Source: SAR86 cluster bacterium SAR86B (GTDB taxonomy: Bacteria > Pseudomonadota > Gammaproteobacteria > Magnimaribacterales > D2472). Taken from it: 64,000 nucleotides of DNA. Shown piece by piece: positions 258 through 30,040 of the stretch (its first letter is position 1; every line of letters begins with the position of its first letter). The stretch spans positions 38,114 to 102,113 of the forward strand of contig CAJJAC010000003.1 in assembly GCA_905181955.1 (NCBI GenBank), given 5' to 3'. The notes under the pieces were generated by a model. It had not been told where the DNA came from. It searched no databases and worked only from the letters and a program-made list of their open reading frames with translations. The translations under genes were made by a program, and so were the position numbers.

Positions 258-2441
258 ATGGATGTATCTTACATATTAGACAATTTGAATGATGAGCAGC
301 GTAAAGCTGTTACATCAGAAAAGCAGCATCTTATGGTGCTTGCTGGCGCTGGCTCTGGTAAAACAAGGGTTCTTGTTCATAAAGTTGCATGGGAAGTTGA
401 AGCATTACAAAAAAATCCTGCAGCCATTATGGCAGTTACTTTTACGAATAAAGCTGCAGCTGAGATGCGTTCTAGAATTGAAGAATTACTACAATCTCCT
501 GCTATGGATTTATGGTGCGGAACCTTTCATGGCTTATCTCACAGAATGCTTAAACGTTTTCATAAAGAAGCCGGCCTCACAAGTGGATTTACAATTCTAG
601 ACTCAGATGATCAATTAAGAATTATCAAAAGAATTGCTAAGGAATCTAACTTAGATGAAGCATCCTGGCCATCGCGTCAAAGCCAATGGCAGATTAACTC
701 TTGGAAAGATGACGGCCTTAGATGCTCTGAAGTTGAAGATCATGGAGACTTTTTTAAAGAGACAATTAAAAAAATATACAAAGAATACGAAGAGATTTGT
801 AAGCAGGATAATTTATTAGATTTTGGCGAGCTCTTACTTAAGTCTTATGAAGTGATTAAAAATAATGAATCGGTGAGATCTTATTTTCATACAAGGTTTA
901 AGACCGTTCTAATTGACGAGTTTCAAGATACTAACTCTATTCAATATAAATGGTTATTAGAAATAGCTTCATCAAGCGCATCTATCACTGCTGTGGGTGA
1001 TGATGATCAATCTATCTATGGATGGAGAGGGGCTAAAGTAGAAAATGTAGCTTCTTTCACTAAGACTTTTAAAAATTCTGAAACGATAAGACTTGAGCAA
1101 AACTACCGCTCTACTAGCATCATACTTTCAGCCGCTAATGCACTTATAGAAAATAATACTGACAGGCTGGGTAAGAATCTTTGGACTGAACAACTTGAAG
1201 GTGAAAATATTATTTTATATCAAGCCTATAACGAGCAAGATGAGGCGCGCTTTGTTGCTGATATTTTAAGAGAGTGGATGAATAAGGGTGAGTTGTATGA
1301 GGATGCAGCTGTCTTATATAGATCTAATGCTCAATCTCGCGCCCTTGAGGAGGCTTTACTAAGATCATCAATTCCATACAGAATATATGGCGGTCAAAGG
1401 TTCTATGAGAGATTAGAAATTAAAAATGCTATCAGCTATTTAAAAATTATCTTTAATCACTCTGACAATCCTTCCTTTGAAAGGTCTATATCCAATCCCA
1501 CTAGAGGAGTTGGCGAGAAAACTTTAAGTAAGATTAGAAGTGCTGCTAAAAAATATAATATTTCTTATATAAAAGCTTCTGCTAAATTAATTGATGAAGG
1601 GGTGATCTCAGGCAAAGGCGGCAATGGGCTTAGATCTTATCTAGAATTAATAGCTGCCTGCAAAGAACTAGCTGAAAGCAATTCATTGTCTGAATTAATG
1701 GAATACATTATTCAAACATCAGGGCTCTATGCTTATCACGGGAAAGAGCCTGGTGAGAAGGGAAAAACAAGAACTGAAAACTTAGAAGAATTAATTACAG
1801 CTACCAAAAACTTTGAACAAAGCATTAGTGATGAAAAGAAAAATATAGAAATTGCAGAAGATTATCTCGATATGATCTCGCTTGATTCTGGAGATAGGCA
1901 AGCGAGTGAACATGATGATGCAGCCCAGCTCATGACCCTTCACTCCGCTAAAGGTTTAGAGTTTAAATTGGTATTAATGACAGGTTTAGAGGAAAGCTTA
2001 TTTCCTCATGGTCGCTCAATGGATAGTATCTCGCAGTTAGAAGAAGAGAGAAGGTTATGTTATGTAGGTATTACTAGAGCTATGCAAAAACTTTATATTA
2101 CTTATGCTGAGTCAAGAAGACTCCATGGATCAGATACCTTTAATCCGCCATCTAGGTTCATTCGGGAGATTCCAAAAGAATTAATGGATGAAATTAGACC
2201 TCGCGCTCAAACTACAACTGCATATACACGCAGAGAATATCCTGCTGCTAAAGAAGCTAAGTATAAAGTTGAAGATGAGATAGGATTTGCATTAGGCCAA
2301 AAAGTCTTGCACCCATCTTTTGGAGAAGGCATAGTTCTTAATTATGAGGGAACAGGTGATGCCGCAAGAGTACAGATTAATTTTGAAAAATCTGGAACCA
2401 AGTGGCTGGTCTTATCTTTTGCTAAACTCGAGAAAATATAA
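258..2441 (+). CDS. uvrD: DNA helicase II (UvrD), SF1 helicase
   Basis: 727 aa. Walker A is AGAGSGKTRVL; helicase motifs are DEFQDTN, VGDDDQSIYGWRGA, QNYRST and MTLHSAKGLEF. Length and C-terminal tail fit UvrD rather than Rep. Confidence 0.85.
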   Translation: MDVSYILDNLNDEQRKAVTSEKQHLMVLAGAGSGKTRVLVHKVAWEVEALQKNPAAIMAVTFTNKAAAEMRSRIEELLQSPAMDLWCGTFHGLSHRMLKRFHKEAGLTSGFTILDSDDQLRIIKRIAKESNLDEASWPSRQSQWQINSWKDDGLRCSEVEDHGDFFKETIKKIYKEYEEICKQDNLLDFGELLLKSYEVIKNNESVRSYFHTRFKTVLIDEFQDTNSIQYKWLLEIASSSASITAVGDDDQSIYGWRGAKVENVASFTKTFKNSETIRLEQNYRSTSIILSAANALIENNTDRLGKNLWTEQLEGENIILYQAYNEQDEARFVADILREWMNKGELYEDAAVLYRSNAQSRALEEALLRSSIPYRIYGGQRFYERLEIKNAISYLKIIFNHSDNPSFERSISNPTRGVGEKTLSKIRSAAKKYNISYIKASAKLIDEGVISGKGGNGLRSYLELIAACKELAESNSLSELMEYIIQTSGLYAYHGKEPGEKGKTRTENLEELITATKNFEQSISDEKKNIEIAEDYLDMISLDSGDRQASEHDDAAQLMTLHSAKGLEFKLVLMTGLEESLFPHGRSMDSISQLEEERRLCYVGITRAMQKLYITYAESRRLHGSDTFNPPSRFIREIPKELMDEIRPRAQTTTAYTRREYPAAKEAKYKVEDEIGFALGQKVLHPSFGEGIVLNYEGTGDAARVQINFEKSGTKWLVLSFAKLEKI

Positions 2442-3529
2442 TGAAACATAAGAATTTATTTATTCTAGGACTTATCTTAATAACGTCATGTTCGAATGAC
2501 GTAGCTGAAAAAATGAGTGATGAAGCTAAAGCTACTCAAACCTATAACTGGCGACTAGTAACAGCATGGCCAAAAAACTATCCTGGTCTTGGAATGGCTC
2601 CAGAGAAGATTGCACAACTTGTAGAAGAAATGAGTAATGGTCAGATGAAAATCACAGTTTATGGTGCTGGTGAACAAGTTCCAGCTTTTGGAGTTTTTGA
2701 AGCTGTTTCAAGTGGCTCTCATCAAATGGGTCATAGCGGGAGTTATTTTTGGAAAGGAAAAGCTCCAGCAGCACAGTTTTTTTCAGGCGTACCTTTTGGA
2801 TTCACTTCTGATGAAATAAATGCTTGGGTATATAAAGGTGGCGGACTTGAGATATGGAGAGAAATATACGAGCCTTTTAATATTCATCCTATGCCTGCGG
2901 GCAATACTGGAACCCAAATGTTTGGCTGGTTTAACAAAGAGATTAATTCATTAGAAGATATAAAAGGTCTAAAAATGCGCATACCAGGAGTGGGAGGCGA
3001 AGTTTTTAAAAGAGCTGGCGGTATTCCTGTAACTTTACCAGCTGGTGAACTTTTTACAGCCCTACAAACAGGGGTAATTGATGCAACTGAATGGGTTGGA
3101 CCTTATAACGATCTGACTTTTGGATTTCAACAGGCTGCTAAGTATTACTACTATCCAGGTTGGCATGAACCAGGCTCAATGCTAGAGCTTTTAATTAACA
3201 AGGAAGCTTGGGAATCTTTACCAAAGCATCTGCAAGTTATTATTGAGACAGCTGCCAAGGCAGTCAATCAAGATACTTTAGCTGAATATACAGCAAGAAA
3301 TAATAGAGCTTTAAGAGAATTAATAGATGTTCATGGCGTTGAATTAAGAAAACTGCCTAATGATGTCATTGCTGAATTTAAAGTCATTGCGAATGAAATT
3401 ATGGAAGAGAATGCAGCCAAAGATCCTACTGTTAACAAAGTCTATCAGTCTTACAAAAATTTTCATGAAGAGGTTTCTGCATATCATGCAATCTCAGAAA
3501 ATGCTTTTATTGAGGCTAGAAATAATTAG
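2441..3529 (+). CDS. dctP: TRAP transporter solute-binding protein (DctP family, lipoprotein-like N-terminus)
   Basis: 362 aa. N-terminus LILITSCSN looks like a lipobox. Strong overall resemblance to DctP-type TRAP periplasmic receptors (NWRLVTAWPKNYPGLG..., RIPGVGGEVFKRAGG). The ATG overlaps the uvrD stop (TAATG). Confidence 0.85.
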   Translation: MKHKNLFILGLILITSCSNDVAEKMSDEAKATQTYNWRLVTAWPKNYPGLGMAPEKIAQLVEEMSNGQMKITVYGAGEQVPAFGVFEAVSSGSHQMGHSGSYFWKGKAPAAQFFSGVPFGFTSDEINAWVYKGGGLEIWREIYEPFNIHPMPAGNTGTQMFGWFNKEINSLEDIKGLKMRIPGVGGEVFKRAGGIPVTLPAGELFTALQTGVIDATEWVGPYNDLTFGFQQAAKYYYYPGWHEPGSMLELLINKEAWESLPKHLQVIIETAAKAVNQDTLAEYTARNNRALRELIDVHGVELRKLPNDVIAEFKVIANEIMEENAAKDPTVNKVYQSYKNFHEEVSAYHAISENAFIEARNN

Positions 3530-4131
3530 TGAAAAATGATTTAACCTTTAAATCACTTGGGCTTACCAATTACCAAGATTCATATGATGCTATGAAGGCT
3601 CATATAACAAACTCTACTTTTGAAAATCAAATATGGCTCCTAGAGCATCCGCCAGTATTTACTCTTGGAACAGCAGCAAGTAAAGAACATATTCTTGATG
3701 CTAAAAATATCCCAGTTATTCAAACCGATAGAGGTGGCGAAGTTACATACCATGGACCTGGCCAGCTAGTTATTTACTTCTTACTTGATATAAAAACTTT
3801 AAAGTGGGGGCCTAAAGCTTTGGTAAAGAATTTAGAAGACTTTATTCAAGAACTACTAAAGCAATATGGTATCGAAACTAATATAATAAGCGGCGCTCCT
3901 GGAGTTTATGTTCAGGATGAAAAAATTGCTTCAATTGGTTTAAGAATATCAAGAGGCAAAACTTATCATGGTATTAGTTTGAATGTTGATATGGACACAG
4001 AGCCATTTAAACAAATTAATCCATGTGGATATGAGGGTTTAAAGGTAACGCAAATAAAAGATTTTATTGATACTATAGATATTAAAGAGGTTGAAGCCTT
4101 AGCAATAAAAATATTAGGCAACCAATTGTAA
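3529..4131 (+). CDS. lipB: Octanoyltransferase LipB
   Basis: 200 aa. GTG start overlaps the dctP stop (TAGTG). Motifs [12 protein letters not shown] and [14 protein letters not shown] are present. lipA is adjacent. Confidence 0.9.
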
Positions 4132-5127: not shown

Positions 5128-5985
5128 ATGACTGAAAGTAATCTTAAAGATTTTATCTCAGGCTACTCTATTGAAGTAGTACCAAATTCTGCTGCTAAGG
5201 TTGAAAGTTTCGCAGATGTACTTCCAAAAAATACTAGAGTCTATATTGCTCACTTGTCAGAAAAAGAAGATATCAAAACCATGGTAGCTACAGCTAAAAG
5301 AATAAGTGACGAGGGATTTTCTGTGATGCCGCATATTCCAGCACGGATTATTAAAAATAAAGCTACCTTAGAAAACTGGATTTCTATGTATAGAAATGAA
5401 GCTAATGTTACAGAAGCTCTTTTAATTGGAGGGGGGTCCTCTCAACCGCTAGGAGATTTTGATTCATCAATCCAATTAATTGAATCAGGTTTATTTGATG
5501 CAGCTGGTTTTAAAAGATTACATATAGCAGGGCACCCAGAAGGCAGTAAAGATATAGATCCTAATGGTGGAAATGCTAATGTTTCCAGCGCTCTTTCATG
5601 GAAACAAGAATTTTCTAAACGCACTGATGCTGAAATGGCTATAGCTACTCAATTTTGTTTTGACGCAACTACAGTTACTCAATGGGCGGAAAGCCTTAAA
5701 CAAGATGGTATAGATATTCCAATTCATATTGGCATCGCTGGTCCAGCTAAACTTCAAACTCTTTTAAGGTTTTCTATTCAATGTGGCATAGGGCCATCAA
5801 TGAAAGTTCTTACAAAAAGAGCTAAGGATTTTACAAAACTTTTATTGCCATATAAGCCTACTGAGATATTAGAAGGTTTAGCAGAATATAAATTAAACAA
5901 TCCAGAGCTAAATATTGAACAAGTACACTTCTTCCCAATTGGTGGCATTAAACAGACTACTGACTGGGTAAAAGAAGTTAGTTAA
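5128..5985 (+). CDS. Methylenetetrahydrofolate reductase (MTHFR/MetF) family protein
   Basis: 285 aa. Colinear with E. coli MetF as I recall it: IAGHPEGS vs AAYPEVHPE, ATQFCFD vs ITQFFFD, and an IGIAGP-type strand. It is divergent, so the exact activity is uncertain. Confidence 0.6.
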   Translation: MTESNLKDFISGYSIEVVPNSAAKVESFADVLPKNTRVYIAHLSEKEDIKTMVATAKRISDEGFSVMPHIPARIIKNKATLENWISMYRNEANVTEALLIGGGSSQPLGDFDSSIQLIESGLFDAAGFKRLHIAGHPEGSKDIDPNGGNANVSSALSWKQEFSKRTDAEMAIATQFCFDATTVTQWAESLKQDGIDIPIHIGIAGPAKLQTLLRFSIQCGIGPSMKVLTKRAKDFTKLLLPYKPTEILEGLAEYKLNNPELNIEQVHFFPIGGIKQTTDWVKEVS

Positions 5986-6538: not shown

Positions 6539-7711
6539 TTAATAAGCTATATAAGCAGCAACATTCCAGAAGTTAAATTCTGTTTCTGTTGTGATCTGAG
6601 CATCTGGAATAAAGATGCTTAGTTCATGCCTACCTTTTTCTAATTTACCCAAACTAATTTTCTTTGGTGAGACTTGACTGCCTGGGCACCAACCAGATCT
6701 TGAGTAGTCAGATGATGCAATTCGTTCCTCTATTTCTACACCTTTCCATTCAGCAGTCTCAGTCCATACCCCTGAACTTGGATTAAATCTTCTAAAGGCA
6801 GCGCAGTCATCTCTCCATGGAATGAATTCAGCAACAATCTGATTATTCAGACTAACAACATTTGTTTTTTTAACAAACTCATCGCCTGTTCCATGGCCTC
6901 CATGGCCAGTGGTTAGATAGTAAAGAAATACTTCATCAGCATCTGCTTCTAACTCAAAACTAGTTACTAATGGCTCTATACCAAACTGGTCATACCCATT
7001 TTGACCTGCTGAAAAGGGAGTTGTATTGACTAGTGAAACAATATTTTGGCCTTGTGATTGATTGGTCTGAGCAGGCTCAGTAAATTCTATAGCTACATCA
7101 ATATCCCAGCCTTTGTCAGACCAAGTATCTATGAAAACGCCAACCAAAATCTCACCTTTCAAAATTGGTAATAAATGCGTTATATCCTCACTCCAAGAAA
7201 TATCATCTTCCCATTTAGCAATATAAACAGGCTTAAGTTTTTCACAGCATTCCTCAGTATTAAAGTAACCAACTCCAAATGGAGTAATAAACCTTAGAAG
7301 CTCCAAGGGCGGATAATAATTATTATCTTCAAGTAAGAATTTTTGTATACCTGGATATGAATCCATTGGTTCTTTATTAGGAAAACTATTGTTTGCTAAA
7401 TTTAAAACAGAATAATCTGACGAAGTTGGGATAATAAAAAATGATCCTGATTTATCCCACGGGTCTCCAGTTGAAACCAATGTAATGTTTGCATTAGCAT
7501 GGCGATAATTATTATTTGTGGGCAGTTGAATTGTTTTTAAGATCAAGCGTCCAGAGCCAAGAGCAATTGTTTGATCATTCTGCTCTTCAGAGGAAGGTTG
7601 AAAACGAATGCTTTGTTTTTCAAAAACATCAAATGCAATCTTATTATCCAGACTCTCATTTGAGCATGATGCAATAATCAAAAATACAATTAAAAATTTT
7701 AGATTCTTCAT
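6539..7711 (-). CDS. Putative lipoprotein with PNGase F-like (peptide-N-glycosidase F fold) domains
   Basis: 390 aa. N-terminus FLIIASCSN looks like a lipobox. Ordered motif matches to PNGase F as I recall it: GDPWDKSG, RFITPFGVGYF, GHGGHGTGDEF and SGWCPGSQV. The ATG overlaps the dctM stop (ATGA at 7708-7711). Confidence 0.55.
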   Translation of the reverse strand: MKNLKFLIVFLIIASCSNESLDNKIAFDVFEKQSIRFQPSSEEQNDQTIALGSGRLILKTIQLPTNNNYRHANANITLVSTGDPWDKSGSFFIIPTSSDYSVLNLANNSFPNKEPMDSYPGIQKFLLEDNNYYPPLELLRFITPFGVGYFNTEECCEKLKPVYIAKWEDDISWSEDITHLLPILKGEILVGVFIDTWSDKGWDIDVAIEFTEPAQTNQSQGQNIVSLVNTTPFSAGQNGYDQFGIEPLVTSFELEADADEVFLYYLTTGHGGHGTGDEFVKKTNVVSLNNQIVAEFIPWRDDCAAFRRFNPSSGVWTETAEWKGVEIEERIASSDYSRSGWCPGSQVSPKKISLGKLEKGRHELSIFIPDAQITTETEFNFWNVAAYIAY

Positions 7712-9045
7712 AAAACAATACTCGGAAAGATTAATACTAGTATGAGTATTAATAATTGAATCAAGATAAATGGTATTACACCTTTGTATATTTCAGAAGT
7801 TTTAATACTAGCATCAGCAACACCTCTTAAATAAAACAACGAGAATCCAAATGGAGGAGTTAAAAAGGATGTTTGAAGATTAATAGCTAAAAGCACTGCA
7901 AGCCACACCGGATCAAAGCCCATCATTAAAAGCGGCGGGGCTACCAAGGGAACAATAACATAACAAATTTCAATAAAATCTAATATAAACCCAAGCAAGA
8001 AGACTATCAGCAATACAAATATTAAGGCTGCATAAGGTCCACCTGGGATAGCGCTAAAAATAAGCTCAATAAGATCATCGCCGCCCACACCTCTAAAGAT
8101 TAAAGAGAATATAGAGGCGCCTATTAATATAGTAAATATCATTGTGGTAACAATTGCAGTTTTCTCACTGGTTTCTTTCAAGAATCCCAATGTTAGTTTT
8201 CCATTAACCAATGCAATAATCATGGCGCCCATGGCACCAATCGCTGCCGCTTCTGTAGGAGTGGCAATGCCTCCAATAATAGAACCCAACACTAAGACAA
8301 TAAGCATTAGTGGCAGAGCAAGGGTTTTCAATATTTCAGCACTTGGTGGTGATGTTGCATCAGGTGAGAAATAAATATTTGGATTTTTTGAATTTTGATA
8401 AATGGTATACACTAAATATGAAGTACAAATAAGAATTCCAGGAACAATTGCTCCAATAAAAAGATCGCCAACCGTAACTGTTTTTTGAGAGAAGATACCC
8501 ATATTATTTTGAGCTCTTTGATAAGCATTAGACATAACATCACCTAGTAACACGAGAGCAATTGATGGTGGGATGATTTGCCCCAAGGTCCCAGTAGCTG
8601 CAACAAGACCTGTAGAAAAATCTTTTTTATAACCTTGTTGAATTAAAACTGGCAGCGACATTAAACCCATAGTCACAACAGTTGCACCTACTATTCCAGT
8701 GCTAGCTGCCAAAAGGGCACCGACAACAATAATTGAAATACTTAGACCACCGCGAATATTCTTAAAAGCCAATGCCATATTTTCGAGCATTCTTCCGGCA
8801 ATACCAGATCTTTCAAGGATAGTCCCCATAAATATAAACAAAGGCACAGCAAGCAAGGTAACATTATTCATAATCCCAAATATTCTTAAGGGAATGCTCT
8901 TAAATATATTGGGATCAAATATTCCAGCAGGTATACATAGCAAAGAAAAGAGAATTGATACCCCTGCAAGCGTTAACGCAACTGGATAACCCAGCAACAA
9001 TGCACCGCACACTAATACTAATAATAATAGCGGGATTATTTCCAT
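7708..9045 (-). CDS. dctM: TRAP transporter large permease (DctM)
   Basis: 445 aa, polytopic and very hydrophobic, with typical DctM length and N-terminus. Overlaps dctQ by 10 nt. Confidence 0.9.
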   Translation of the reverse strand: MEIIPLLLLVLVCGALLLGYPVALTLAGVSILFSLLCIPAGIFDPNIFKSIPLRIFGIMNNVTLLAVPLFIFMGTILERSGIAGRMLENMALAFKNIRGGLSISIIVVGALLAASTGIVGATVVTMGLMSLPVLIQQGYKKDFSTGLVAATGTLGQIIPPSIALVLLGDVMSNAYQRAQNNMGIFSQKTVTVGDLFIGAIVPGILICTSYLVYTIYQNSKNPNIYFSPDATSPPSAEILKTLALPLMLIVLVLGSIIGGIATPTEAAAIGAMGAMIIALVNGKLTLGFLKETSEKTAIVTTMIFTILIGASIFSLIFRGVGGDDLIELIFSAIPGGPYAALIFVLLIVFLLGFILDFIEICYVIVPLVAPPLLMMGFDPVWLAVLLAINLQTSFLTPPFGFSLFYLRGVADASIKTSEIYKGVIPFILIQLLILILVLIFPSIVL

Positions 9046-9509
9046 AGGATCCTAGAAGCTTTATATAAAAAAGCTCCAATCAGCGTTAAGGGGAATAAAA
9101 ATATAAAAGATTTTTGAATATACACATAAGCCAAACCACCTGGCTCAGTTGATGTTTCTTTAATACTCCAAGACATATAGATAAGATCAATTGAGTAGAC
9201 AAAAATTACCACACATACAGGTAATAAAAATATGATGCCGCAAACCAAGTTAACCATATCTTTGTATTTTGATTTAGCTTCGCGATAAAAGATGTCTACG
9301 CGAACATGTTCATCTTGATTAAAAACATATCCAGCACAACCCAAAAAGATAAGTGAGTGAAAATACATGACCAATTCCTGAAGATCAGTTCTTCCTATTC
9401 CAAAGAAATAACGACTTACAATAACTACGACCATTAGCAAAGTCATGACGGGAATTAGGTAAGAAATATTCTTCCCTATTAAATTTATGCATTTTTCTAC
9501 AACTTTCAT
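9036..9509 (-). CDS. dctQ: TRAP transporter small permease (DctQ)
   Basis: 157 aa with 4 predicted TM segments, immediately upstream of and overlapping dctM. Confidence 0.8.
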   Translation of the reverse strand: MKVVEKCINLIGKNISYLIPVMTLLMVVVIVSRYFFGIGRTDLQELVMYFHSLIFLGCAGYVFNQDEHVRVDIFYREAKSKYKDMVNLVCGIIFLLPVCVVIFVYSIDLIYMSWSIKETSTEPGGLAYVYIQKSFIFLFPLTLIGAFLYKASRILWK

Positions 9510-11362: not shown

Positions 11363-12547
11363 ATGAAATCATTAAAACTCAATCATTTTTCTATTTTTAC
11401 TTTATCTATTTGCTCGGTTTTATTGCTAATAATAGCTTCCTGCTCCAATAGTGACCAAGACAACAATGAAGAAGAGCTAATAAAGATTGGTAATAAACAG
11501 TCAGAAGAAATTAATATTATTAATTTTGAATCTAATAAACCAAGAAATGTAATATTAATGATCGGAGATGGGATGGGCCCAAATCAAATCTCTCTTGCAA
11601 GAATTGCAATAGGTGGTCCAGATTACAGACTTGCAGTAGACATGATGCCGCATACAGGCATAGTACTTACCCATTCATTTGGAAATATATATACAGATTC
11701 TGCTTCCTCAGCAACAGCCTATTCAACTGGAACAAAAACTATAAATGGTTACCTGTCTCTTGATAGCAATAAAGAACCACTTTCTATTTTGACTGAAGAA
11801 TTATATGAAAATGGCTACATTAATGGTCTCGTTGCAACATCAGCCATTACTCATGCAACGCCAGCAGCCTTTTATGCTCATGTAGACGATAGAGATAAAG
11901 AGATTGAGATTGCTCAACAGCTTATTCAAGCCAGCTCTATAAGCATTGCTTTGGGTGGCGGTAAAGAATATTTTGAAAATATTGAAACCACAGAAGCTGT
12001 AGAAATTTTTTACTCTACGGATGAAGTTCGAAATTCTAATAATCAGAGTAACGCAAGAATAATAGGTCTCTTTGATGAAGATGGAATTATGCGAGCAGAA
12101 AATAAGCCAACTCAAAAAGAAATGACAACAATGGCACTAACGCATTTATCTAATAAAGCAGCTTCATGTAATGGCTTCTTTTTAATGTCAGAGGGAAGTC
12201 AAATTGATTGGGGCGGGCATCTAAATAATTCTTCATATGTGTTGGCTGAATTCATGGATTTTGAATCCACACTCACTGACATGATGCAGTTTGTGAATGA
12301 GGATAAGAATACACTTCTTATAGTGACGGCTGACCATGAAACAGGCGGCCTTCAATTATTAGGTCAGCAAGATGATAGCCTTATAATTAAATTCACAACA
12401 AATCAACATTCAGCACTTCCGGTGAATGTCTATGCTTATGGCCCAGGAGCAGATTCCTTTTCGGGTCTAATGGATAATACTGAAATTTTTCAAAAGATAG
12501 TAGAAGCTCTAGACTATAAAAATATTCAGAAATCTAATTGCAAATAG
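11363..12547 (+). CDS. phoA: Alkaline phosphatase, PhoA family (lipoprotein-like)
   Basis: 394 aa. N-terminus LLIIASCSN. Motifs are IGDGMG, the active-site region TDSASSATAYSTG, and the C-terminal metal site TADHETGG. Confidence 0.85.
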   Translation: MKSLKLNHFSIFTLSICSVLLLIIASCSNSDQDNNEEELIKIGNKQSEEINIINFESNKPRNVILMIGDGMGPNQISLARIAIGGPDYRLAVDMMPHTGIVLTHSFGNIYTDSASSATAYSTGTKTINGYLSLDSNKEPLSILTEELYENGYINGLVATSAITHATPAAFYAHVDDRDKEIEIAQQLIQASSISIALGGGKEYFENIETTEAVEIFYSTDEVRNSNNQSNARIIGLFDEDGIMRAENKPTQKEMTTMALTHLSNKAASCNGFFLMSEGSQIDWGGHLNNSSYVLAEFMDFESTLTDMMQFVNEDKNTLLIVTADHETGGLQLLGQQDDSLIIKFTTNQHSALPVNVYAYGPGADSFSGLMDNTEIFQKIVEALDYKNIQKSNCK

Positions 12548-12618: not shown

Positions 12619-13608
12619 ATGAAAATAAATCAGAAATTTCTTAAAAGTATACTTGAGCCTTTAAAACAAACCTCTGCATCAGCCTCAAAGGCAATAATGG
12701 AAGTTTATAACTCTGAGTCTTACGATACAGAAATTAAAGCAGACGGATCTCCTGTAACGGAAGCAGATAATAGAGCAAACGATATTATTATCAGATCACT
12801 TAAAGAAATTACCCCAGACATTCCTATCATTTCTGAAGAAACTTTTCATTCCGAAGATCAAAATCCTAAAGGCCCATATTGGCTAGTTGACCCGCTTGAT
12901 GGGACTAAAGGGTTTATTAATAAAGATGGAAATTTTACAGTTAATATTGCATTGATTGATAATGCTATGCCTATATTTGGCATTATTGAAGCCCCAGCAA
13001 CTGGAAAAATTTGGTCAGGATCATTTTTTCAAAGACCTGTTAGACGCTTTAGATTTGGTGCTCTTTTTTTCTTTATAGGCCCTTTAGCTTTATTTGTATC
13101 AAATATCTTTGGTCCAATTAGCTTCTTAATATTTTTGATACTATTTTTATTTACCCCCTGGTTTATTCAGCATAAGAGTTACGGACCTCATTCAGTTACA
13201 AAAGAAATGATTGATGGAAAGCTTTTATATAAAGATGGCCCATTAAGATTGGTCATGAGCAAGAATCATCAAACTGAGATTGATAGAAAATTTTTAGATT
13301 TCCTTACCAGTAAAGATATTGCATATACTCTTGTAGAAAAAGGCAGCTCTCTTAAATTATGCGCCCTTGCTGACAATGAGGCTGATATATACCCAAGATT
13401 TGGGCCTACATCTGAGTGGGATATAGCTGCTGGACATGCAATTCTTATAAAAAATGGGGGAAGAGTCTGTCAAATGACTTCGGGTGAGCATCTTGCTTAT
13501 ACAAAAGAAGAATCTATCCTAAATCCTGCCTTCGTAGGCTTCAGAAATACCTACCTAAAAGATAGATATTTAGGACTTATAAGCGAATTTTATAAAAAAT
13601 TGGTATAA
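12619..13608 (+). CDS. cysQ: 3'(2'),5'-bisphosphate nucleotidase CysQ (IMPase family) with an internal hydrophobic insertion
   Basis: 329 aa. IMPase/CysQ motifs SEE, WLVDPLDGTKGF, GSSLKLC and WDIAAGHAI are present. About 60 extra residues (aa ~135-195) include two hydrophobic stretches. Confidence 0.75.
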   Translation: MKINQKFLKSILEPLKQTSASASKAIMEVYNSESYDTEIKADGSPVTEADNRANDIIIRSLKEITPDIPIISEETFHSEDQNPKGPYWLVDPLDGTKGFINKDGNFTVNIALIDNAMPIFGIIEAPATGKIWSGSFFQRPVRRFRFGALFFFIGPLALFVSNIFGPISFLIFLILFLFTPWFIQHKSYGPHSVTKEMIDGKLLYKDGPLRLVMSKNHQTEIDRKFLDFLTSKDIAYTLVEKGSSLKLCALADNEADIYPRFGPTSEWDIAAGHAILIKNGGRVCQMTSGEHLAYTKEESILNPAFVGFRNTYLKDRYLGLISEFYKKLV

Positions 13609-23429: not shown

Positions 23430-25244
23430 ATGAACAAATTATTTAGCTTACTTATAACAATATTTATTTTAGTGTCTTGTTCCTCAAACGATTCTGAAAT
23501 TAAAACTATATCTGATGTAGAGTCTTTTCTAGAGAAGGTAGAGCAAGAGAATAAAACTCTTGGACCAGTTGCTTCTTCTGCATCATGGATAAGTTCTAAT
23601 TTTATAACTTACGATTCGCAAAAGATAGCTGCAGATTTTGGTAAACGCTATTCTCTGATTTCAGTAGAAAGAGCAAACGAAGCTGCGACCTTTGATGACC
23701 TAGACCTGCCTGATGAAATGAGAAGAAAACTAAATTTAATAAAAGGTGGTTTTGTTATGCCAGCACCTCTAGACGATGCTTTAGCTGGAGAAATAGCTAA
23801 TATAGAATCTGAACTTGGTGCCATGTATGGATTAGGCAGTCATTGCTTTGATGAAAATGATTGTTATGACCTTGAAGCTTTTGAGCAAATTATAGACTCA
23901 TCAAGAAACCCAGAAGAGCTATTAAAAGCATGGACGGGCTGGAGAGAAATAGGCAAGCCTATGAAGGATAAGTATATGCGCATGGTTGAAATAGGTGACC
24001 TTGGTGCTAGAGACCTAGGCTATGACGGCTTAACTGATTTATGGTTTAGTAAATATGATATGCCTGCTGAAGAGTTCCTTGAAGAGACAGATAGAGTCTG
24101 GGAAGAAGTAAAACCTCTATATGATGCACTTCAATGTCACGTCCGAGAAAAGTTAAATGAACATTATGGGGATGATATTGTTCCTGCCGAAGGAATGCTT
24201 CCTGCTCATGTTCTGGGAAATATGTGGGGCCAATCATGGGCTAACGTATATGATCTAGTTTTTGAAGAAGATCCGAATGCAGTTTCTATTAATTTAACTT
24301 CACTTATCGAAGAAAAAGATTTGACGGAGCGTGAGATGGTTGTGATAGCTGAAGATTTCTTCCTATCTTTAGGATTTGATCCATTACCAGAAACCTTCTG
24401 GGAAAGATCTTTATTTACTAAACCTCAAGATAGAAATGTAGTGTGTCATGCATCAGCATGGAACCTAGACCCAGATAATAACGACTTAAGAATAAAGATG
24501 TGTATACAAAAGAATGAGGAAGATTTTGTAACTATTCATCATGAGTTAGGTCATATTTTTTATTATCAAGCTTATAACGATCTTCCTGGAGTATTTAGAG
24601 GAGGAGCAAATGACGGCTTTCATGAAGCTGTTGGAGATTTATTAGCTTTATCGATTACTCCAGATTATTTAAACCAGATTGGTTTTGTTACTAAGGCTGA
24701 GGCAGAAGCAGCGGAGCAGGACCCAATTGCATTATTAATGAAGCAAGCTTTAGATGGCGTTGTCTCAATTCCATGGACTTTAATGTTAGATAAATGGAGA
24801 TCAGGTATTTTTACTGGTGAAATAACAAAAGAAAACTTAAATTCTAGTTGGTGGGAATTAAGAGAAAAGTATCAAGGCATTACATCTCCAATGGAAAGAG
24901 GTGAAGAGTATTTTGATCCAGGTGCTAAATATCATATTCCTGGTAATACTCCATACACGCGATACTATCTTGCAAAAATTATGCAATACCAGTTCCATGA
25001 ATCATTATGTAACGACATAGGTTTTGAAGGGCCTCTGCATGAGTGTTCAATTTATAATAATCCTGAGGCTGGAGTAAAAATAAGAAATATGCTGGCAATG
25101 GGTCAAAGCAAGCCTTGGCAGGATGCTTTTGAAGCTTTAACTGGAGAAAGAGCTTTAAGCGGAACTTCAATTTTAAATTATTATAAACCTCTTCAAGAAT
25201 GGCTAGAAAAAGAAAATGAAAGCCGTTCATGTGGTTGGGAGTAG
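23430..25244 (+). CDS. M2 family zinc peptidase (angiotensin-converting-enzyme-like peptidyl-dipeptidase A), lipoprotein-like
   Basis: 604 aa. N-terminus ILVSCSS. Zinc site is HHELGHIFYY with the downstream glutamate motif FHEAVGD, as in ACE/M2 peptidases. Confidence 0.85.
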   Translation: MNKLFSLLITIFILVSCSSNDSEIKTISDVESFLEKVEQENKTLGPVASSASWISSNFITYDSQKIAADFGKRYSLISVERANEAATFDDLDLPDEMRRKLNLIKGGFVMPAPLDDALAGEIANIESELGAMYGLGSHCFDENDCYDLEAFEQIIDSSRNPEELLKAWTGWREIGKPMKDKYMRMVEIGDLGARDLGYDGLTDLWFSKYDMPAEEFLEETDRVWEEVKPLYDALQCHVREKLNEHYGDDIVPAEGMLPAHVLGNMWGQSWANVYDLVFEEDPNAVSINLTSLIEEKDLTEREMVVIAEDFFLSLGFDPLPETFWERSLFTKPQDRNVVCHASAWNLDPDNNDLRIKMCIQKNEEDFVTIHHELGHIFYYQAYNDLPGVFRGGANDGFHEAVGDLLALSITPDYLNQIGFVTKAEAEAAEQDPIALLMKQALDGVVSIPWTLMLDKWRSGIFTGEITKENLNSSWWELREKYQGITSPMERGEEYFDPGAKYHIPGNTPYTRYYLAKIMQYQFHESLCNDIGFEGPLHECSIYNNPEAGVKIRNMLAMGQSKPWQDAFEALTGERALSGTSILNYYKPLQEWLEKENESRSCGWE

Positions 25245-26224: not shown

Positions 26225-26983
26225 ATGTTGAAATTACGAGCCATAATAATGTCTCTTGCTTTAATCATTCCATTTGTAGCGAGCGCTACTGATATGGAAG
26301 CAGTGTTAGAAGTAGGCAGAGATAATTCAAACCAATCAGCTGTATCGCAAGATAAAATCGACAGCACAGAAAAGCAAACAGACAAAATTGTAAACGAGTG
26401 GAAGGTTGTCTCTAAGCAAGTCGAAGGCCTAAAGGTTTATAACCAACAAAAAAGAATCCAAATTCAAGCTCAGCTTGATTTGATGGATAAATTAGATGAT
26501 CAGCTAACCCAAGTAGTTGTCATGCAAAGACAAATACCACCTTTAGCCCAAAGAATGCTTGAAGGTCTAGAAAAGTTTGTTGAGCTTGATGTACCTTTCC
26601 ATATTGAAGAAAGAAGACAAAGACTTGATTTAGTAAGAAGTTCTTTATCAAATCCAAAAGTGACAGCTTCAGAGCAAGTAAGACAAATTTTAGAAGCCTA
26701 TAATATTGAGGGTGAGTACGGAAGAAAGATTGATGCTTTTGAATCTTCTATTATTATTGATGGCCAAGAAATAGTAGCTAATGTTTTAGTTATTGGAAGA
26801 ATTGGAATGTTCTATCAAACCAAAGATGAGAGAACTAGCGGTATATGGGATAACGATGCTAACGACTGGATAGAACTAGAAAGTGGTTTTAGAACAGCTA
26901 TTAGAGATGGTATTAGAATGGCTAAAAAATTAGCTCCAACAGATATGTTGATGCTGCCAGTAATCGTTAAGGAGCAAATCTAA
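26225..26983 (+). CDS. DUF3450-type periplasmic coiled-coil protein (TonB2-system TtpB-like)
   Basis: 252 aa with a signal peptide and a coiled-coil-rich sequence. First gene of an ExbB/ExbD/TonB cluster. Its stop overlaps the next start (TAATG). Confidence 0.7.
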   Translation: MLKLRAIIMSLALIIPFVASATDMEAVLEVGRDNSNQSAVSQDKIDSTEKQTDKIVNEWKVVSKQVEGLKVYNQQKRIQIQAQLDLMDKLDDQLTQVVVMQRQIPPLAQRMLEGLEKFVELDVPFHIEERRQRLDLVRSSLSNPKVTASEQVRQILEAYNIEGEYGRKIDAFESSIIIDGQEIVANVLVIGRIGMFYQTKDERTSGIWDNDANDWIELESGFRTAIRDGIRMAKKLAPTDMLMLPVIVKEQI

Positions 26984-28377
26984 TGAAATTTTTAAATTTA
27001 TTTTATTTCGTATTAATTGTTACGTTTTCTGCTCCATCTTTTGCACAAGATGCTGATGATGCAAGCGTTGATCAAGAACCAACCACTGTCGAAGCACTTT
27101 TAGCACTTGTTAAAGAAGGTAAAGTTAAAGAACAAGCAGAAAATAACAAAAGAGAAGCAACCTTCTTAGCAAGCAAGAATAAGCAAGCTAGTATTTTAGC
27201 TGCTGAAAAAAGAGAACTTGCTAGGCAAGAAAAAATTGCAGACAAATTAGAGGCTGAATATAAATCAAACCAAGAAATTCTTAGAGTTAAAGAAGATGCT
27301 TACAAGAAAGAGCTTGGTTCATTGGTCGAATTATTTGGTCACATACAAAGTTCAGCTGGAGAAGCCTCATCAATGTTTGCTGGTTCACTTACTTCTGCTC
27401 AATTTGGACTTGAAAGAGTTTCATTTTTAAATGGCCTTACCGGCAAAATGTCAGAAACAACTGAGCTACCTACTATTAAAGAAATAGAGCGTTTATGGTA
27501 CGAACTTCAAAATGAAATGATTGCTGGTGGAAATGTAGTTAAATTCAATACTACTGTTATTGATGTTGATGGCGAAACTTCTGAATGTGAAGTTACCAGA
27601 GTAGGTTTATTTAATGCTGTTTGTGATGGTAAATATCTTGAATTTGCATCATCTAAAGGGCAGTATGCCTTTCTTCCAAGACAACCAGCTGGAAGATATA
27701 CAAAGAGTGCTAAGAATTTAGGAAATGCTGAAGGTGGCGAACAGGTTAAGTTTGGAGTTGATCCAACTGGACCTACAGGTGGAAGCTTATTAGCAAACCT
27801 TATACAAACTCCTTCTATGGCAGAAAGAGCAAAGCAAGGTAAAGAAGTTGGAGCAGCAATTATTGTTGTAGGTATTATTGGTATTGCAATAGCTTTCTGG
27901 AAACTTTACAGCTTATATATGGTTAGTGTAGCTGTTACTAGGCAGACTAAATCCAAAACTGCATCATCAGATAATCCTTTAGGAAGGGTTCTTAAAGTAG
28001 GAGAAGCTAACTTTAAGAAAGATATAGATACATTAGAACTTCGTTTAGCTGAAGCAATCATGGCGGAAAGGCCTTCGATTGAGAGAGGCATAAGTGTTGT
28101 AAGAATAATCTCGGTTGTAGCTCCGTTAGCCGGTCTACTTGGAACTGTTACAGGCATGATTGTGACATTCCAACAGATTACACTTTACGGTACTGGAGAT
28201 CCTAAGCTAATGGCTGGTGGTATTTCACAAGCATTAGTTACAACAGTTCTAGGCCTATTAGTTGCTATCCCAACAACTCTTCTTCATTCATTTACTGCAT
28301 CGTCAGCTAAAGGAATTATTTGTATTTTAGAAGAACAGAGTACTGGTATATTGGCTGAGCATTCTGAAACTAGCTAG
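26983..28377 (+). CDS. Long MotA/TolQ/ExbB-family proton channel protein with periplasmic N-terminal extension (TtpC-like)
   Basis: 464 aa. Signal peptide, then about 280 aa of charged coiled-coil region, then a C-terminal 3-TM MotA/ExbB core (APLAGLLGTVTGMI...GISQALVTTVLGL). Confidence 0.8.
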   Translation: MKFLNLFYFVLIVTFSAPSFAQDADDASVDQEPTTVEALLALVKEGKVKEQAENNKREATFLASKNKQASILAAEKRELARQEKIADKLEAEYKSNQEILRVKEDAYKKELGSLVELFGHIQSSAGEASSMFAGSLTSAQFGLERVSFLNGLTGKMSETTELPTIKEIERLWYELQNEMIAGGNVVKFNTTVIDVDGETSECEVTRVGLFNAVCDGKYLEFASSKGQYAFLPRQPAGRYTKSAKNLGNAEGGEQVKFGVDPTGPTGGSLLANLIQTPSMAERAKQGKEVGAAIIVVGIIGIAIAFWKLYSLYMVSVAVTRQTKSKTASSDNPLGRVLKVGEANFKKDIDTLELRLAEAIMAERPSIERGISVVRIISVVAPLAGLLGTVTGMIVTFQQITLYGTGDPKLMAGGISQALVTTVLGLLVAIPTTLLHSFTASSAKGIICILEEQSTGILAEHSETS

Positions 28378-28385
28378 TTTTATAT

Positions 28386-28910
28386 ATGTACGAATTAAGT
28401 GAAGCATTTGTCTCAGTAAGAGACTTCATGGAGCAGGGTGGCGACGTTCTGTGGGGCATTGCTTTACTAGTATTATTTATGTGGACCATGATCTTTGAAA
28501 GGGCCTTCTACTATGCTCAAGGATACAATGAGTATATTGCTGGATTAGTTCAGCAATGGGAATCAAGAGAAGATAAGACTTCTTGGTACGCTCTTCAAAT
28601 TCGTGCCAAGTACATGTCTCAAGCAAAAGTAGAAATTAATAGGAATCTATCACTGATACAAACTTGTGTTGCTATAGCTCCTTTATTTGGTTTACTAGGA
28701 ACAGTTACAGGAATGATAGAGGTCTTCCAGGTTATGGCCTTTAATGGTGGTGGTGATGCTAGATCAATGGCAGGAGGTGTTTCAAAAGCAACACTTCCAA
28801 CTATGGCAGGAATGGTCGTTGCTTTATCAGGTGTATTTGCAACAATATATTTAAATGGTGCTAGTCTTAAAAGAGAGCAAATGTTAAATAAAGTTATTAA
28901 AAGATATTAA
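28386..28910 (+). CDS. exbB: Biopolymer transport protein ExbB
   Basis: 174 aa. MotA/TolQ/ExbB core is APLFGLLGTVTGMIEVF...GVSKATLPTMAGM. Confidence 0.85.
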   Translation: MYELSEAFVSVRDFMEQGGDVLWGIALLVLFMWTMIFERAFYYAQGYNEYIAGLVQQWESREDKTSWYALQIRAKYMSQAKVEINRNLSLIQTCVAIAPLFGLLGTVTGMIEVFQVMAFNGGGDARSMAGGVSKATLPTMAGMVVALSGVFATIYLNGASLKREQMLNKVIKRY

Positions 28911-28929
28911 AAGATATTAGGAGAGAATT

Positions 28930-29340
28930 GTGAGAAGAGGATCAATTACAAGCGCAGTAAAAGAAGAAGAAAGTGAAATCAATATGACGCCGATGCTTGA
29001 TGTTGTATTTATCATGCTTATTTTCTTTATTGTTACCGCAAACTTTATTAAAGAGCCTGGTTTAGAAATCAATAGACCTGATTCAAACACAGCAGAAACC
29101 CAAGAAAATGCTGCAATATTAATTGCTGTTGGACCAACTGGTGAAATATGGATGGATGGCAGAAGAATTGATGTCAGACAGGTAAAAGCTAATGTTGTGA
29201 AAATGCTTGCCGATAATCCTCAGGGTTCTGTTGTAATTCAAGCTGATGAAAAAGCAGTAGCAGATACAATAATCAAGGTTATGGATGGAGCTAGAGAAGC
29301 TGGAGTCTCTGCAATTTCACTAGCATCAGAACCTAAATAA
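28930..29340 (+). CDS. exbD: Biopolymer transport protein ExbD
   Basis: 136 aa. GTG start preceded by AGGAGAG. Motif EINMTPMLDVVFIMLIFFIV is typical of ExbD/TolR. Confidence 0.9.
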   Translation: MRRGSITSAVKEEESEINMTPMLDVVFIMLIFFIVTANFIKEPGLEINRPDSNTAETQENAAILIAVGPTGEIWMDGRRIDVRQVKANVVKMLADNPQGSVVIQADEKAVADTIIKVMDGAREAGVSAISLASEPK

Positions 29341-29349
29341 TTATTAAAT

Positions 29350-30039
29350 ATGGCGACAGAAATAGCTAATAAATCAGCAAATTCTTCAGAGTCAGTATTA
29401 GCTTTCCTGGCTAAAAATAAGTATATTTCAGGTGGCGTTTTAGCCTCATTAGTTTCACTAGTTTTATTCTTCGTTATGGTTCTATTAATCTCTCTTGGAG
29501 ATAGTGGCATAAAAGATGATAATTCAGTCAAACTTGTAGATATTGTTATGCCCGAAAGAGACATAGATACTCTTTTACAAGAAGTAGATAAACCAGATGA
29601 ACCAGAAGAGCAGCCAGATGATATTGCTCAGCCAGAACTTGAACTTCAGCCACTTACAGGCGTTGATGTTGCTATCGCAAAACCCAAAGCAGTTGTAAAA
29701 GTGGGTGGGTCATTCTTTAAAGACGGTGCTTATATGCCTTTATTTGCTGTTCAGCCTCAATATCCCAGAAGAGCTCAAGAAAGAGGCACAGAAGGCTACT
29801 CAATTATTAGTTTTACTATTACTGAACAAGGAACTGCAGAGGGAGCAATTGTTGTAGAAGGCAAATGTGGAGATATAAATGATCCAGAGGTTGTCATGAG
29901 AGATTGTTCAATCTTCAATAATTCTTCGGTAAGAGCAGCAGCTAAATTAAAATATAAACCAAAAATTGTTGATGGTAATCCAGTAAAAGTAGACAATGTT
30001 TTATATAGATTTAGATATGAAATGGAGGAAGAAGATTAG
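29350..30039 (+). CDS. tonB: Energy transducer TonB
   Basis: 229 aa. N-terminal TM segment, acidic Pro/Glu-rich spacer (DKPDEPEEQPDD), and C-terminal TonB domain (PQYPRRAQERGTEGYSIISFTI). Confidence 0.85.
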   Translation: MATEIANKSANSSESVLAFLAKNKYISGGVLASLVSLVLFFVMVLLISLGDSGIKDDNSVKLVDIVMPERDIDTLLQEVDKPDEPEEQPDDIAQPELELQPLTGVDVAIAKPKAVVKVGGSFFKDGAYMPLFAVQPQYPRRAQERGTEGYSIISFTITEQGTAEGAIVVEGKCGDINDPEVVMRDCSIFNNSSVRAAAKLKYKPKIVDGNPVKVDNVLYRFRYEMEEED

Positions 30040-30040
30040 T

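Follow-up and report, generated by a model that had tools for sequence, protein, structure and literature searches.

A predicted group 1 PNGase lipoprotein encoded directly behind TRAP permease genes in SAR86 bacteria

Bacterial peptide N-glycosidases (PNGases) related to PNGase F fall into structurally distinct groups. BF0811 (PDB entry 3KS7), a Bacteroides enzyme of "group 1", is active and has broad specificity, and group 2 PNGases carry an N-terminal bowl-like domain together with a pocket for core α-1,3-fucose. The stripping of N-glycans is usually credited to Bacteroidota. A second described system that matters here is the tripartite ATP-independent periplasmic (TRAP) transporter TakPQM of Rhodobacter sphaeroides, whose TakP protein (2HZK/2HZL) is a 2-oxoacid receptor and represents a class that binds monocarboxylic 2-oxo- and 2-hydroxy-acids. 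We examined a locus in which genes related to both systems adjoin, located in a 64,000-nucleotide stretch of DNA (hereafter the window) from SAR86 cluster bacterium SAR86B (assembly GCA_905181955.1, contig CAJJAC010000003.1, positions 38,114 to 102,113). SAR86 is among the most abundant heterotrophic lineages of the surface ocean and is not cultured. A first-pass annotation of the window had read dctQ, dctM and a 390-residue open reading frame (ORF) in this order on the minus strand, with the last two joined by an ATGA overlap, and the ORF list and the sequence agree with it on all three ORFs, the strand and the overlap (Table 1).

The 390-residue ORF matches both Pfam domains of the PNGase F family, N-glycanase_N (PF09112) at 7.5e-45 and 153.3 bits against a gathering cutoff of 22.4, and N-glycanase_C (PF09113) at 1.1e-45 and 155.3 bits against a gathering cutoff of 25. 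Since the two domains occur in order and score far above their gathering thresholds, these profile matches rule out a chance resemblance. The closest solved structures in a phmmer search of the PDB are 3KS7, the "putative PNGase F" of B. fragilis (3e-88), and 4QHB of B. vulgatus (1e-86), followed by 7ZGN and PNGase F-II (4R4X/4R4Z) at approximately 1e-53 to 1e-56, with PNGase F-II itself at 2e-53. Classic PNGase F is not reached from the ORF by this pairwise search of the PDB, but a profile of 29 homologues (alignment A1) does retrieve it at 4e-6, and hhalign comparison of A1 with PNGase F (1pnf_A, residues 1-314) gives a probability of 96.9%. The AlphaFold2 model of the protein (pLDDT 80.5, pTM 0.82) predicts a fold that is two side-by-side eight-stranded antiparallel β jelly rolls. 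Foldseek aligns this model to 3KS7 and 4QHB with a template-modeling (TM) score of 0.84 and approximately 40% identity, to the group 2 enzymes (PNGase F-II, 4R4X; 7ZGN) with a TM score of 0.76-0.77, and to PNGase F (1PNF/1PGS) with an E-value of ~1e-15 and a target-normalized TM score of 0.71-0.73. The catalytic module starts at about residue 25 with no N-terminal bowl-like domain, and 3KS7 and 4QHB are the nearest structures. The ORF is a genuine two-domain PNGase F homolog of the BF0811, or group 1, branch. The first-pass annotation had proposed the PNGase F family from short motifs and named a profile search and a structure comparison as checks; both find the family, with the two N-glycanase domains matched at ~1e-45 each and the model superimposing on the PNGase F fold.

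The active site can be followed residue by residue in the hhalign alignment. GDPWDKSG of the SAR86 protein lies opposite CDEWDRYA of PNGase F, RFITPFGVG opposite RFITPYWVG, GDEF opposite CAEW, and SGWCPGS opposite AGWCPGM, so that the four motif correspondences listed in the first-pass annotation are all correct. At single positions, W85-D86-K87 corresponds to W59-D60-R61, D195-T-W197 to E118-T-W120, H270 to W191, E278 to E206, and W341 to W251. The equivalents of the catalytic Asp and Glu, D86 and E278, whose conservation had been named as a further check, are invariant across the 29 homologues of A1, as are D195, W197 and W341. Within the chitobiose-binding set of PNGase F, W120 and W251 are retained (W197 and W341), and E118 and W191 are replaced by D195 and H270. 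Because the alignment places the same two residues in the active BF0811, these substitutions are compatible with activity, though not identical to PNGase F. The SAR86 protein is predicted to be a PNGase of the active type.

The protein is also most likely exported and lipid-anchored in the envelope. Inspection of its N-terminus, MKNLKFLIVFLIIASC, identifies the lipobox I-A-S-C, and the signal peptide MKNLKFLIVFLIIAS-C16 fits the lipobox pattern [LVI][ASTVI][GAS]C. Cys16 is retained in at least 90% of the 29 homologues, the motif [LI][ASTIV][SA]C is kept in 10/10 sequences of the SAR86 clade, and a lipobox is present in most flavobacterial sequences as well, all of which accords with the lipoprotein-type N-terminus seen in the first-pass annotation. 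In E. coli, a Ser at position +2 sorts lipoproteins to the outer membrane; residue +2 of the SAR86 PNGase is Ser, which by analogy would place it there. Near-identical signals ending in (T/A)SCSN occur in three unrelated exported proteins of the window: DctP (LILITSCSND; 2441-2500, plus strand), the PNGase (LIIASCSNES; 7664-7711, minus strand), and an alkaline-phosphatase-family protein (LLIIASCSNSD; 11363-11450, plus strand). It is unusual for a Gram-negative bacterium to anchor a TRAP binding protein by a lipid, and many periplasmic proteins of SAR86 may be tethered by such lipoprotein signals.

At the junction between the permease and PNGase genes, the PNGase start codon (ATG, 7711-7709) and the dctM stop codon (TGA, 7710-7708) run together in the four bases of the ATGA; the dctM frame ends att gtt tta tga and the PNGase frame opens atg aag aat. 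The dctQ and dctM genes themselves overlap by 10 nucleotides. The Shine-Dalgarno sequence upstream of the PNGase start appears weak on inspection, and a pattern scan detects no terminator-like site at the dctM/PNGase junction. The overlap, the lack of intergenic space, the weak Shine-Dalgarno sequence and the missing terminator-like site together make co-transcription and translational coupling likely, and the PNGase gene is probably co-transcribed with dctQM. Promoter-like matches number 14, compared with 15.7 ± 3.8 expected from shuffles, which leaves the promoter and terminator scan uninformative in this AT-rich DNA; Rfam and tRNA scans of the region return nothing.

The overlap has to be read against the general packing of the genome. 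The window has a GC content of 34.9% and is very compact: among ORFs of at least 90 residues, 17/44 same-strand junctions overlap and 27/44 are separated by 3 nucleotides or fewer. Overlapping pairs of unrelated genes include uvrD/dctP and dctP/lipB (1 nucleotide each) as well as metX-like/yggT, gcvT/ABC permease, and mutY/His_Phos (4 nucleotides each). As unrelated genes overlap in the same manner, the dctM/PNGase overlap alone is no sign of a shared function. The uvrD, dctP and lipB genes, joined by their 1-nucleotide overlaps and followed 2 nucleotides later by lipA (258-4131, plus strand), form an operon-like packing that is kept in SAR86.

The arrangement is fixed in SAR86. The exact PNGase protein is found on metagenome contigs with an identical neighborhood, and species-representative genomes contain at least 442 relatives, the closest being metagenome-assembled genomes (MAGs) and single-amplified genomes of SAR86 (e.g., FRAM18_bin311, 93%). 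When the window proteins were searched by tblastn against 16 fetched SAR86 loci (four with the exact protein, three homolog contigs from metagenomes or a MAG, and nine species-level genomes), the PNGase gene adjoined dctM in every one. Wherever the contigs reach, yaaA and dctQ lie upstream, and a variable segment followed by lipA, lipB, dctP and uvrD lies downstream; dctP is syntenic in each locus that extends far enough. The ATGA itself recurs at every one of the 13 SAR86 junctions inspected, despite differing surrounding bases and PNGase identities as low as 54%, which upholds the third-cistron position assigned to the gene in the first-pass annotation. Across the deepest SAR86 split, identities are 54% for the PNGase, 72% for DctM, 70% for DctP, and 83% for LipA. 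On this deepest branch, nothing but the PNGase gene, lipA and lipB lies in the gap between the facing 3′ ends of the two TRAP gene units. One PNGase subclade (P0021/P0026) carries a loop deletion of ~30 residues. The SAR86 PNGases are monophyletic in 100/100 neighbor-joining bootstraps, as expected if the gene was fixed a single time. Its origin is probably of the Bacteroidota type, acquisition from that phylum being the likelier direction because the family is overwhelmingly bacteroidotal.

Outside SAR86, the link to a TRAP system disappears. We used tblastn to look for DctQ, DctM and DctP within 8 kb of PNGase homologs at 71 non-SAR86 loci, mostly from Flavobacteriales and Bacteroidales with additional representatives from Pseudomonadales, K189A, Kangiellaceae and Colwellia, and found them at none (0/71). 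A survey of the dctQ-dctM-ORF junction, as suggested by the first-pass annotation, thus has a divided outcome, with the junction present in every SAR86 locus inspected and TRAP genes missing near the PNGase at the 71 loci from elsewhere. Three of these loci, from Bizionia (L092), Paraglaciecola (L093) and Tenacibaculum (L094), were annotated gene by gene. There the PNGase belongs to a cluster typical of N-glycan degradation, with a GH92 α-mannosidase, a GH20 hexosaminidase, a GH2 β-mannosidase and GH97, along with CutC and an Asparaginase_2 protein (glycosylasparaginase family). Transport is represented in these clusters by transporters of the MFS or SSF type and by a TonB-dependent receptor. 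The residence of orthologs in such clusters supports deglycosylation of N-glycans or glycopeptides as the role of the family, and the contents of the clusters indicate that the usual transport partners of these PNGases are not TRAP systems. In a Pseudomonadales MAG, the neighbors of the PNGase homolog are MatE, an α/β hydrolase, and a γ-glutamyltranspeptidase, the last of these two genes away (L008 7001-11089). A γ-glutamyltranspeptidase gene also directly follows the TakP-type TRAP operon of a Rhodobacteraceae plasmid (L091 6552-9467).

The window encodes a TRAP binding protein of its own. The best PDB matches of DctP, overall at 1e-74 to 1e-93, are 4PET (1e-93), 5CM6 (4e-91), the "ketoacid-binding protein" 7UG8, and TakP (2HZK/2HZL), with the lactate-binding TTHA0766 next, and by these matches SAR86 DctP is a member of the TakP/ketoacid/lactate-binding class. 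The DctM homolog search was saturated with SAR86 sequences of 94-100% identity, and more distant DctM contexts were taken from a tblastn search of a plasmid collection. To check whether DctP pairs with DctQM, both proteins were searched against plasmid records and the loci of the best matches were opened: for DctM those of Sulfitobacter (L090), Paroceanicella (L095) and Ponticoccus (L096), with best matches at 53% identity, and for DctP those of Rhodobacteraceae (L091), Phaeobacter (L097) and Hoeflea (L098). In each of these alphaproteobacterial plasmid loci, a TakP-type DctP (40-46% identical to the window protein) lies no more than one gene from DctQM (44-58%), the count for the nearest DctQM homologs being 5/5, and in three (L090, L095 and L098) dctP faces dctM-dctQ convergently, as it does in SAR86. 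The dctP gene of the window is the probable cognate binding-protein gene of dctQM, and the window contains a complete TakP-type TRAP system, binding protein included. The SAR86 locus looks like one of these convergent TRAP loci whose 3′-3′ gap contains additional genes; there lipB and lipA, with or without a gene similar to 5,10-methylenetetrahydrofolate reductase (MTHFR) and DUF805, are oriented with dctP, and the PNGase gene is oriented with dctQM.

Two of these plasmid loci have further neighbors of note. On the Sulfitobacter sp. W002 plasmid NZ_CP081127.1 (L090 3284-6317), a gene for an isoaspartyl peptidase/L-asparaginase stands immediately before the closest plasmid-borne DctQM homolog (53% identity). 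We considered this Asparaginase_2 gene as possible support for an enzyme-TRAP link and set it aside; it is absent at L091 and L095-L098 and may be a coincidence. On the Hoeflea sp. IMCC20628 plasmid (L098 2367-7388), dctP comes after a UvrD-family gene in an IS6-flanked unit and faces dctM-dctQ, in imitation of the SAR86 order. Shared ancestry with the uvrD-dctP pair of SAR86 was likewise considered, but the helicases are 27% identical over 94 residues, and the resemblance is probably coincidental.

These observations bear on two proposals of the first-pass annotation. It had supposed that the PNGase gene occupies the place of the binding-protein gene, which is contradicted by the presence of dctP (Table 1). 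It had further suggested that the enzyme might generate the transported organic acid. The products of a PNGase are free glycan, an Asp-peptide and ammonia, none of which is a 2-oxo- or 2-hydroxy-acid; the outside loci lack the link, and ATGA overlaps also join unrelated genes, so that this suggestion finds no support. An enzyme-coupled TRAP system would be recognized by a linkage that recurs outside one lineage or by the replacement of DctP; none of the 71 loci shows such a linkage, and DctP is present.

On balance, we think it reasonably probable that the SAR86 gene encodes a lipid-anchored group 1 PNGase that is co-expressed with a mechanistically separate TakP-type TRAP system in a streamlined genome. 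The PNGase gene would have been fixed once in the SAR86 ancestor, directly downstream of dctM in the 3′-3′ gap of a convergent TakP-type TRAP locus, and would now most likely be carried on the dctQM transcript, its translation coupled through the ATGA overlap. The envelope PNGase most likely hydrolyzes the amide bond between GlcNAc and Asn in N-glycopeptides or N-glycoproteins, such as those derived from phytoplankton; the products would be the free glycan, ammonia and an Asp-peptide. The TRAP system would be a separate device with a predicted substrate of the 2-oxoacid, pyruvate or lactate type, unrelated to the PNGase reaction. The linkage would then reflect shared expression in a streamlined genome and not a mechanistic enzyme-transporter partnership; a mechanistic link between the two is unlikely.

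Several observations weigh against this reading and lend themselves to other explanations. The retention of the overlap across SAR86 down to 54% identity would also be expected under selection for the co-expression of functionally related genes. Together with the conserved gene order and the weak Shine-Dalgarno sequence, which probably makes PNGase translation dependent on dctM, it speaks for a true module in which the lipoprotein generates or captures the transported carboxylate or feeds DctP, as a SAR86-specific enzyme-coupled TRAP system. The Sulfitobacter asparaginase, another Asn-amide hydrolase, can be cited in the same sense, as can the Asparaginase_2 family that accompanies PNGases in flavobacteria. 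However, an entire neighborhood of ~17 kb is syntenic in SAR86, which makes the conservation of this one junction nonspecific, and similar overlaps join unrelated genes in the window. The asparaginase neighbor does not recur at the other plasmid loci, the PNGase homologs outside SAR86 lack TRAP genes, and a DctP of the TakP/ketoacid/lactate class is not matched to the products of a PNGase. We therefore regard a module of this kind as quite improbable. It is more improbable still that the SAR86 PNGase and the TakP-type TRAP system work as partners, through substrate supply or a physical complex, such that action on glycoconjugates is coupled to carboxylate uptake. Were that the case, the locus would represent an undescribed enzyme-coupled TRAP module, and the Sulfitobacter asparaginase-dctQM arrangement would be a second example of an Asn-amide hydrolase for this TRAP subfamily.

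The glycosidases that accompany the family elsewhere also weigh on the function of the enzyme itself, as neither the partners GH92, GH20 and GH2 nor GH97 is found in the 64-kb window. If the PNGase F fold had been given another job, either as a glycan- or peptide-binding lipoprotein or as an amidase whose substrate is something else than N-glycans of the eukaryotic type, this absence would be understandable. The PNGase also evolves faster than its neighbors across the deepest SAR86 split, two residues of the chitobiose-binding set differ from PNGase F (W191 to H270; E118 to Asp), and one subclade has lost a loop. The Asp in place of E118 is found, like H270, in the active, broad-specificity BF0811, to whose family the model aligns at 40% identity with a TM score of 0.84. 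The equivalents of the catalytic Asp and Glu and of the Trp residues that contact chitobiose are invariant; on this ground we did not keep non-catalytic binding as the leading idea, and another job for the fold, in either form, seems to us unlikely. The pattern scans are also compatible with a promoter inside dctM, and the PNGase gene may have its own promoter in the 3′ end of dctM and be expressed independently of the permease operon. Sigma-70-like matches occur within dctM on the minus strand (e.g., 8153-8126 and 8010-7982), and in compact genomes a promoter is often located within the preceding gene. Such matches are no more frequent than in shuffled sequence, however, and the genes are joined by a conserved 4-nucleotide overlap with neither intergenic space nor a terminator-like site, which renders independent expression rather improbable.

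The enzyme is a new member of a known family, and its genomic arrangement is confined to a single lineage. That a PNGase with an intact active site is conserved in SAR86 suggests that these bacteria strip N-glycans from glycopeptides or glycoproteins, and it is of mild ecological interest that an abundant oligotroph retains such a gene with no partner glycosidases in its vicinity. Papers that name SAR86 and N-glycans assign the N-glycan genes to Bacteroidota, Verrucomicrobiota and Planctomycetota. In the literature searched, we found no paper that combines SAR86 with PNGase or a TRAP transporter with PNGase, in line with the first-pass annotation, to which no described TRAP system with an extracytoplasmic N-glycanase/amidase-fold partner in place of the binding-protein gene was known. 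For streamlined genomes in general, the locus advises caution: neither a 4-nucleotide start/stop overlap nor a conserved gene order is in itself a sign of a functional partnership.

Table 1 Coordinates of the PNGase and TRAP features in the window.
Feature	Coordinates	Strand	Description and basis
dctQ, TRAP small permease subunit	9509-9036	minus	157 residues; PF04290 2.6e-11
dctM, TRAP large permease subunit	9045-7708	minus	445 residues; PF06808 1.5e-76; TIGR00786 304.9 bits, above cutoff (NCBIfam)
PNGase F-like lipoprotein gene (group 1/BF0811-like)	7711-6539	minus	390-residue ORF; PF09112 and PF09113
ATGA junction, dctM stop overlapping PNGase start	7708-7711	minus	read in the sequence
Predicted lipoprotein signal peptide, residues 1-16, lipobox IASC, Cys16	7664-7711	minus	sequence inspection and alignment
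N-glycanase_N domain, residues 28-210	7082-7630	minus	Pfam PF09112; holds D86, D195 and W197
N-glycanase_C domain, residues 247-388	6548-6973	minus	Pfam PF09113; holds E278 and W341
D86 codon	7456-7454	minus	equivalent of PNGase F D60
D195 codon	7129-7127	minus	D195/W197 equivalent to E118/W120 of PNGase F
E278 codon	6880-6878	minus	equivalent of PNGase F E206
dctP, TakP-type TRAP solute-binding protein	2441-3529	plus	lipoprotein signal LITSC; PF03480 6.5e-63

Other genes of the window deserve mention. A 285-residue ORF (5128-5985, plus strand) has no Pfam match and resembles 5,10-methylenetetrahydrofolate reductase 7XG9 at 1.9e-48; this MTHFR-like ORF lies between lipA and the PNGase gene in most SAR86 loci and is absent from the deepest branch. 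A CysQ/inositol-monophosphatase-family protein of 329 residues (12619-13608, plus strand) matches Pfam in two stretches, between which lies a hydrophobic insertion of ~55 residues (RRFRFGALFFFIGPLALFVSNIFGPISFLIFLILFLFTPWF), and its SAR86 orthologs have 262-273 residues. A 604-residue protein (23430-25244, plus strand) gives a full-length match to Peptidase_M2, the angiotensin-converting enzyme family (E = 7e-199); it is an animal-type dipeptidyl carboxypeptidase and could process peptides side by side with the PNGase. Further along (26225-31504, plus strand) lies a DUF3450-ExbB-ExbB-ExbD-TonB-TPR cluster of the kind that energizes TonB-dependent uptake, and it could serve glycopeptide import for a periplasm-facing PNGase.

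Among described systems, the SAR86 protein stands closest to BF0811 (3KS7) and BVU_2763 (4QHB), with which it shares a length of ~390 residues, a two-domain architecture without the bowl-like domain, and the Asp and His that replace E118 and W191. Those enzymes come from gut Bacteroides, whereas SAR86 is a free-living, streamlined marine gammaproteobacterium; the SAR86 protein, whose activity is predicted, has a lipoprotein signal, and its gene follows TRAP permease genes instead of lying in or near glycan-utilization loci. PNGase F of Elizabethkingia meningoseptica (1PNF/1PNG/1PGS) has the same fold, both Pfam domains, and the equivalents of D60, E206, W120 and W251, but is only ~16-22% identical; the SAR86 protein exceeds it by ~75 residues, has additional loops or hairpins, and differs at E118 (Asp) and W191 (His). 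The group 2 enzymes, PNGase F-II (4R4X) and the plant-type PNGase of B. massiliensis (7ZGN), possess a homologous catalytic module, but they add an N-terminal domain that the SAR86 protein lacks and have Gly at the position of D195. The N-glycan clusters of Bizionia, Tenacibaculum and Paraglaciecola encode PNGase orthologs with 42-49% identity and lipoprotein-type N-termini, in contrast to SAR86, where no other member of these clusters, Asparaginase_2, CutC, MFS/SSF and the TonB-dependent receptor included, lies close by and the PNGase gene neighbors are dctQM and housekeeping genes. On the transporter side, TakPQM of Rhodobacter sphaeroides and its relatives (2HZK/2HZL, 4PET, 5CM6, 7UG8) share the DctP class and the separate DctQ and DctM subunits with SAR86, and the TakP-type TRAP loci of the Sulfitobacter, Paroceanicella and Hoeflea plasmids share its convergent layout. 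SAR86 differs from these TRAP systems in the lipobox on its DctP, in the extra enzyme cistron after dctM, and in having lipB, lipA, an MTHFR-like gene, DUF805 and the PNGase gene between the convergent units.

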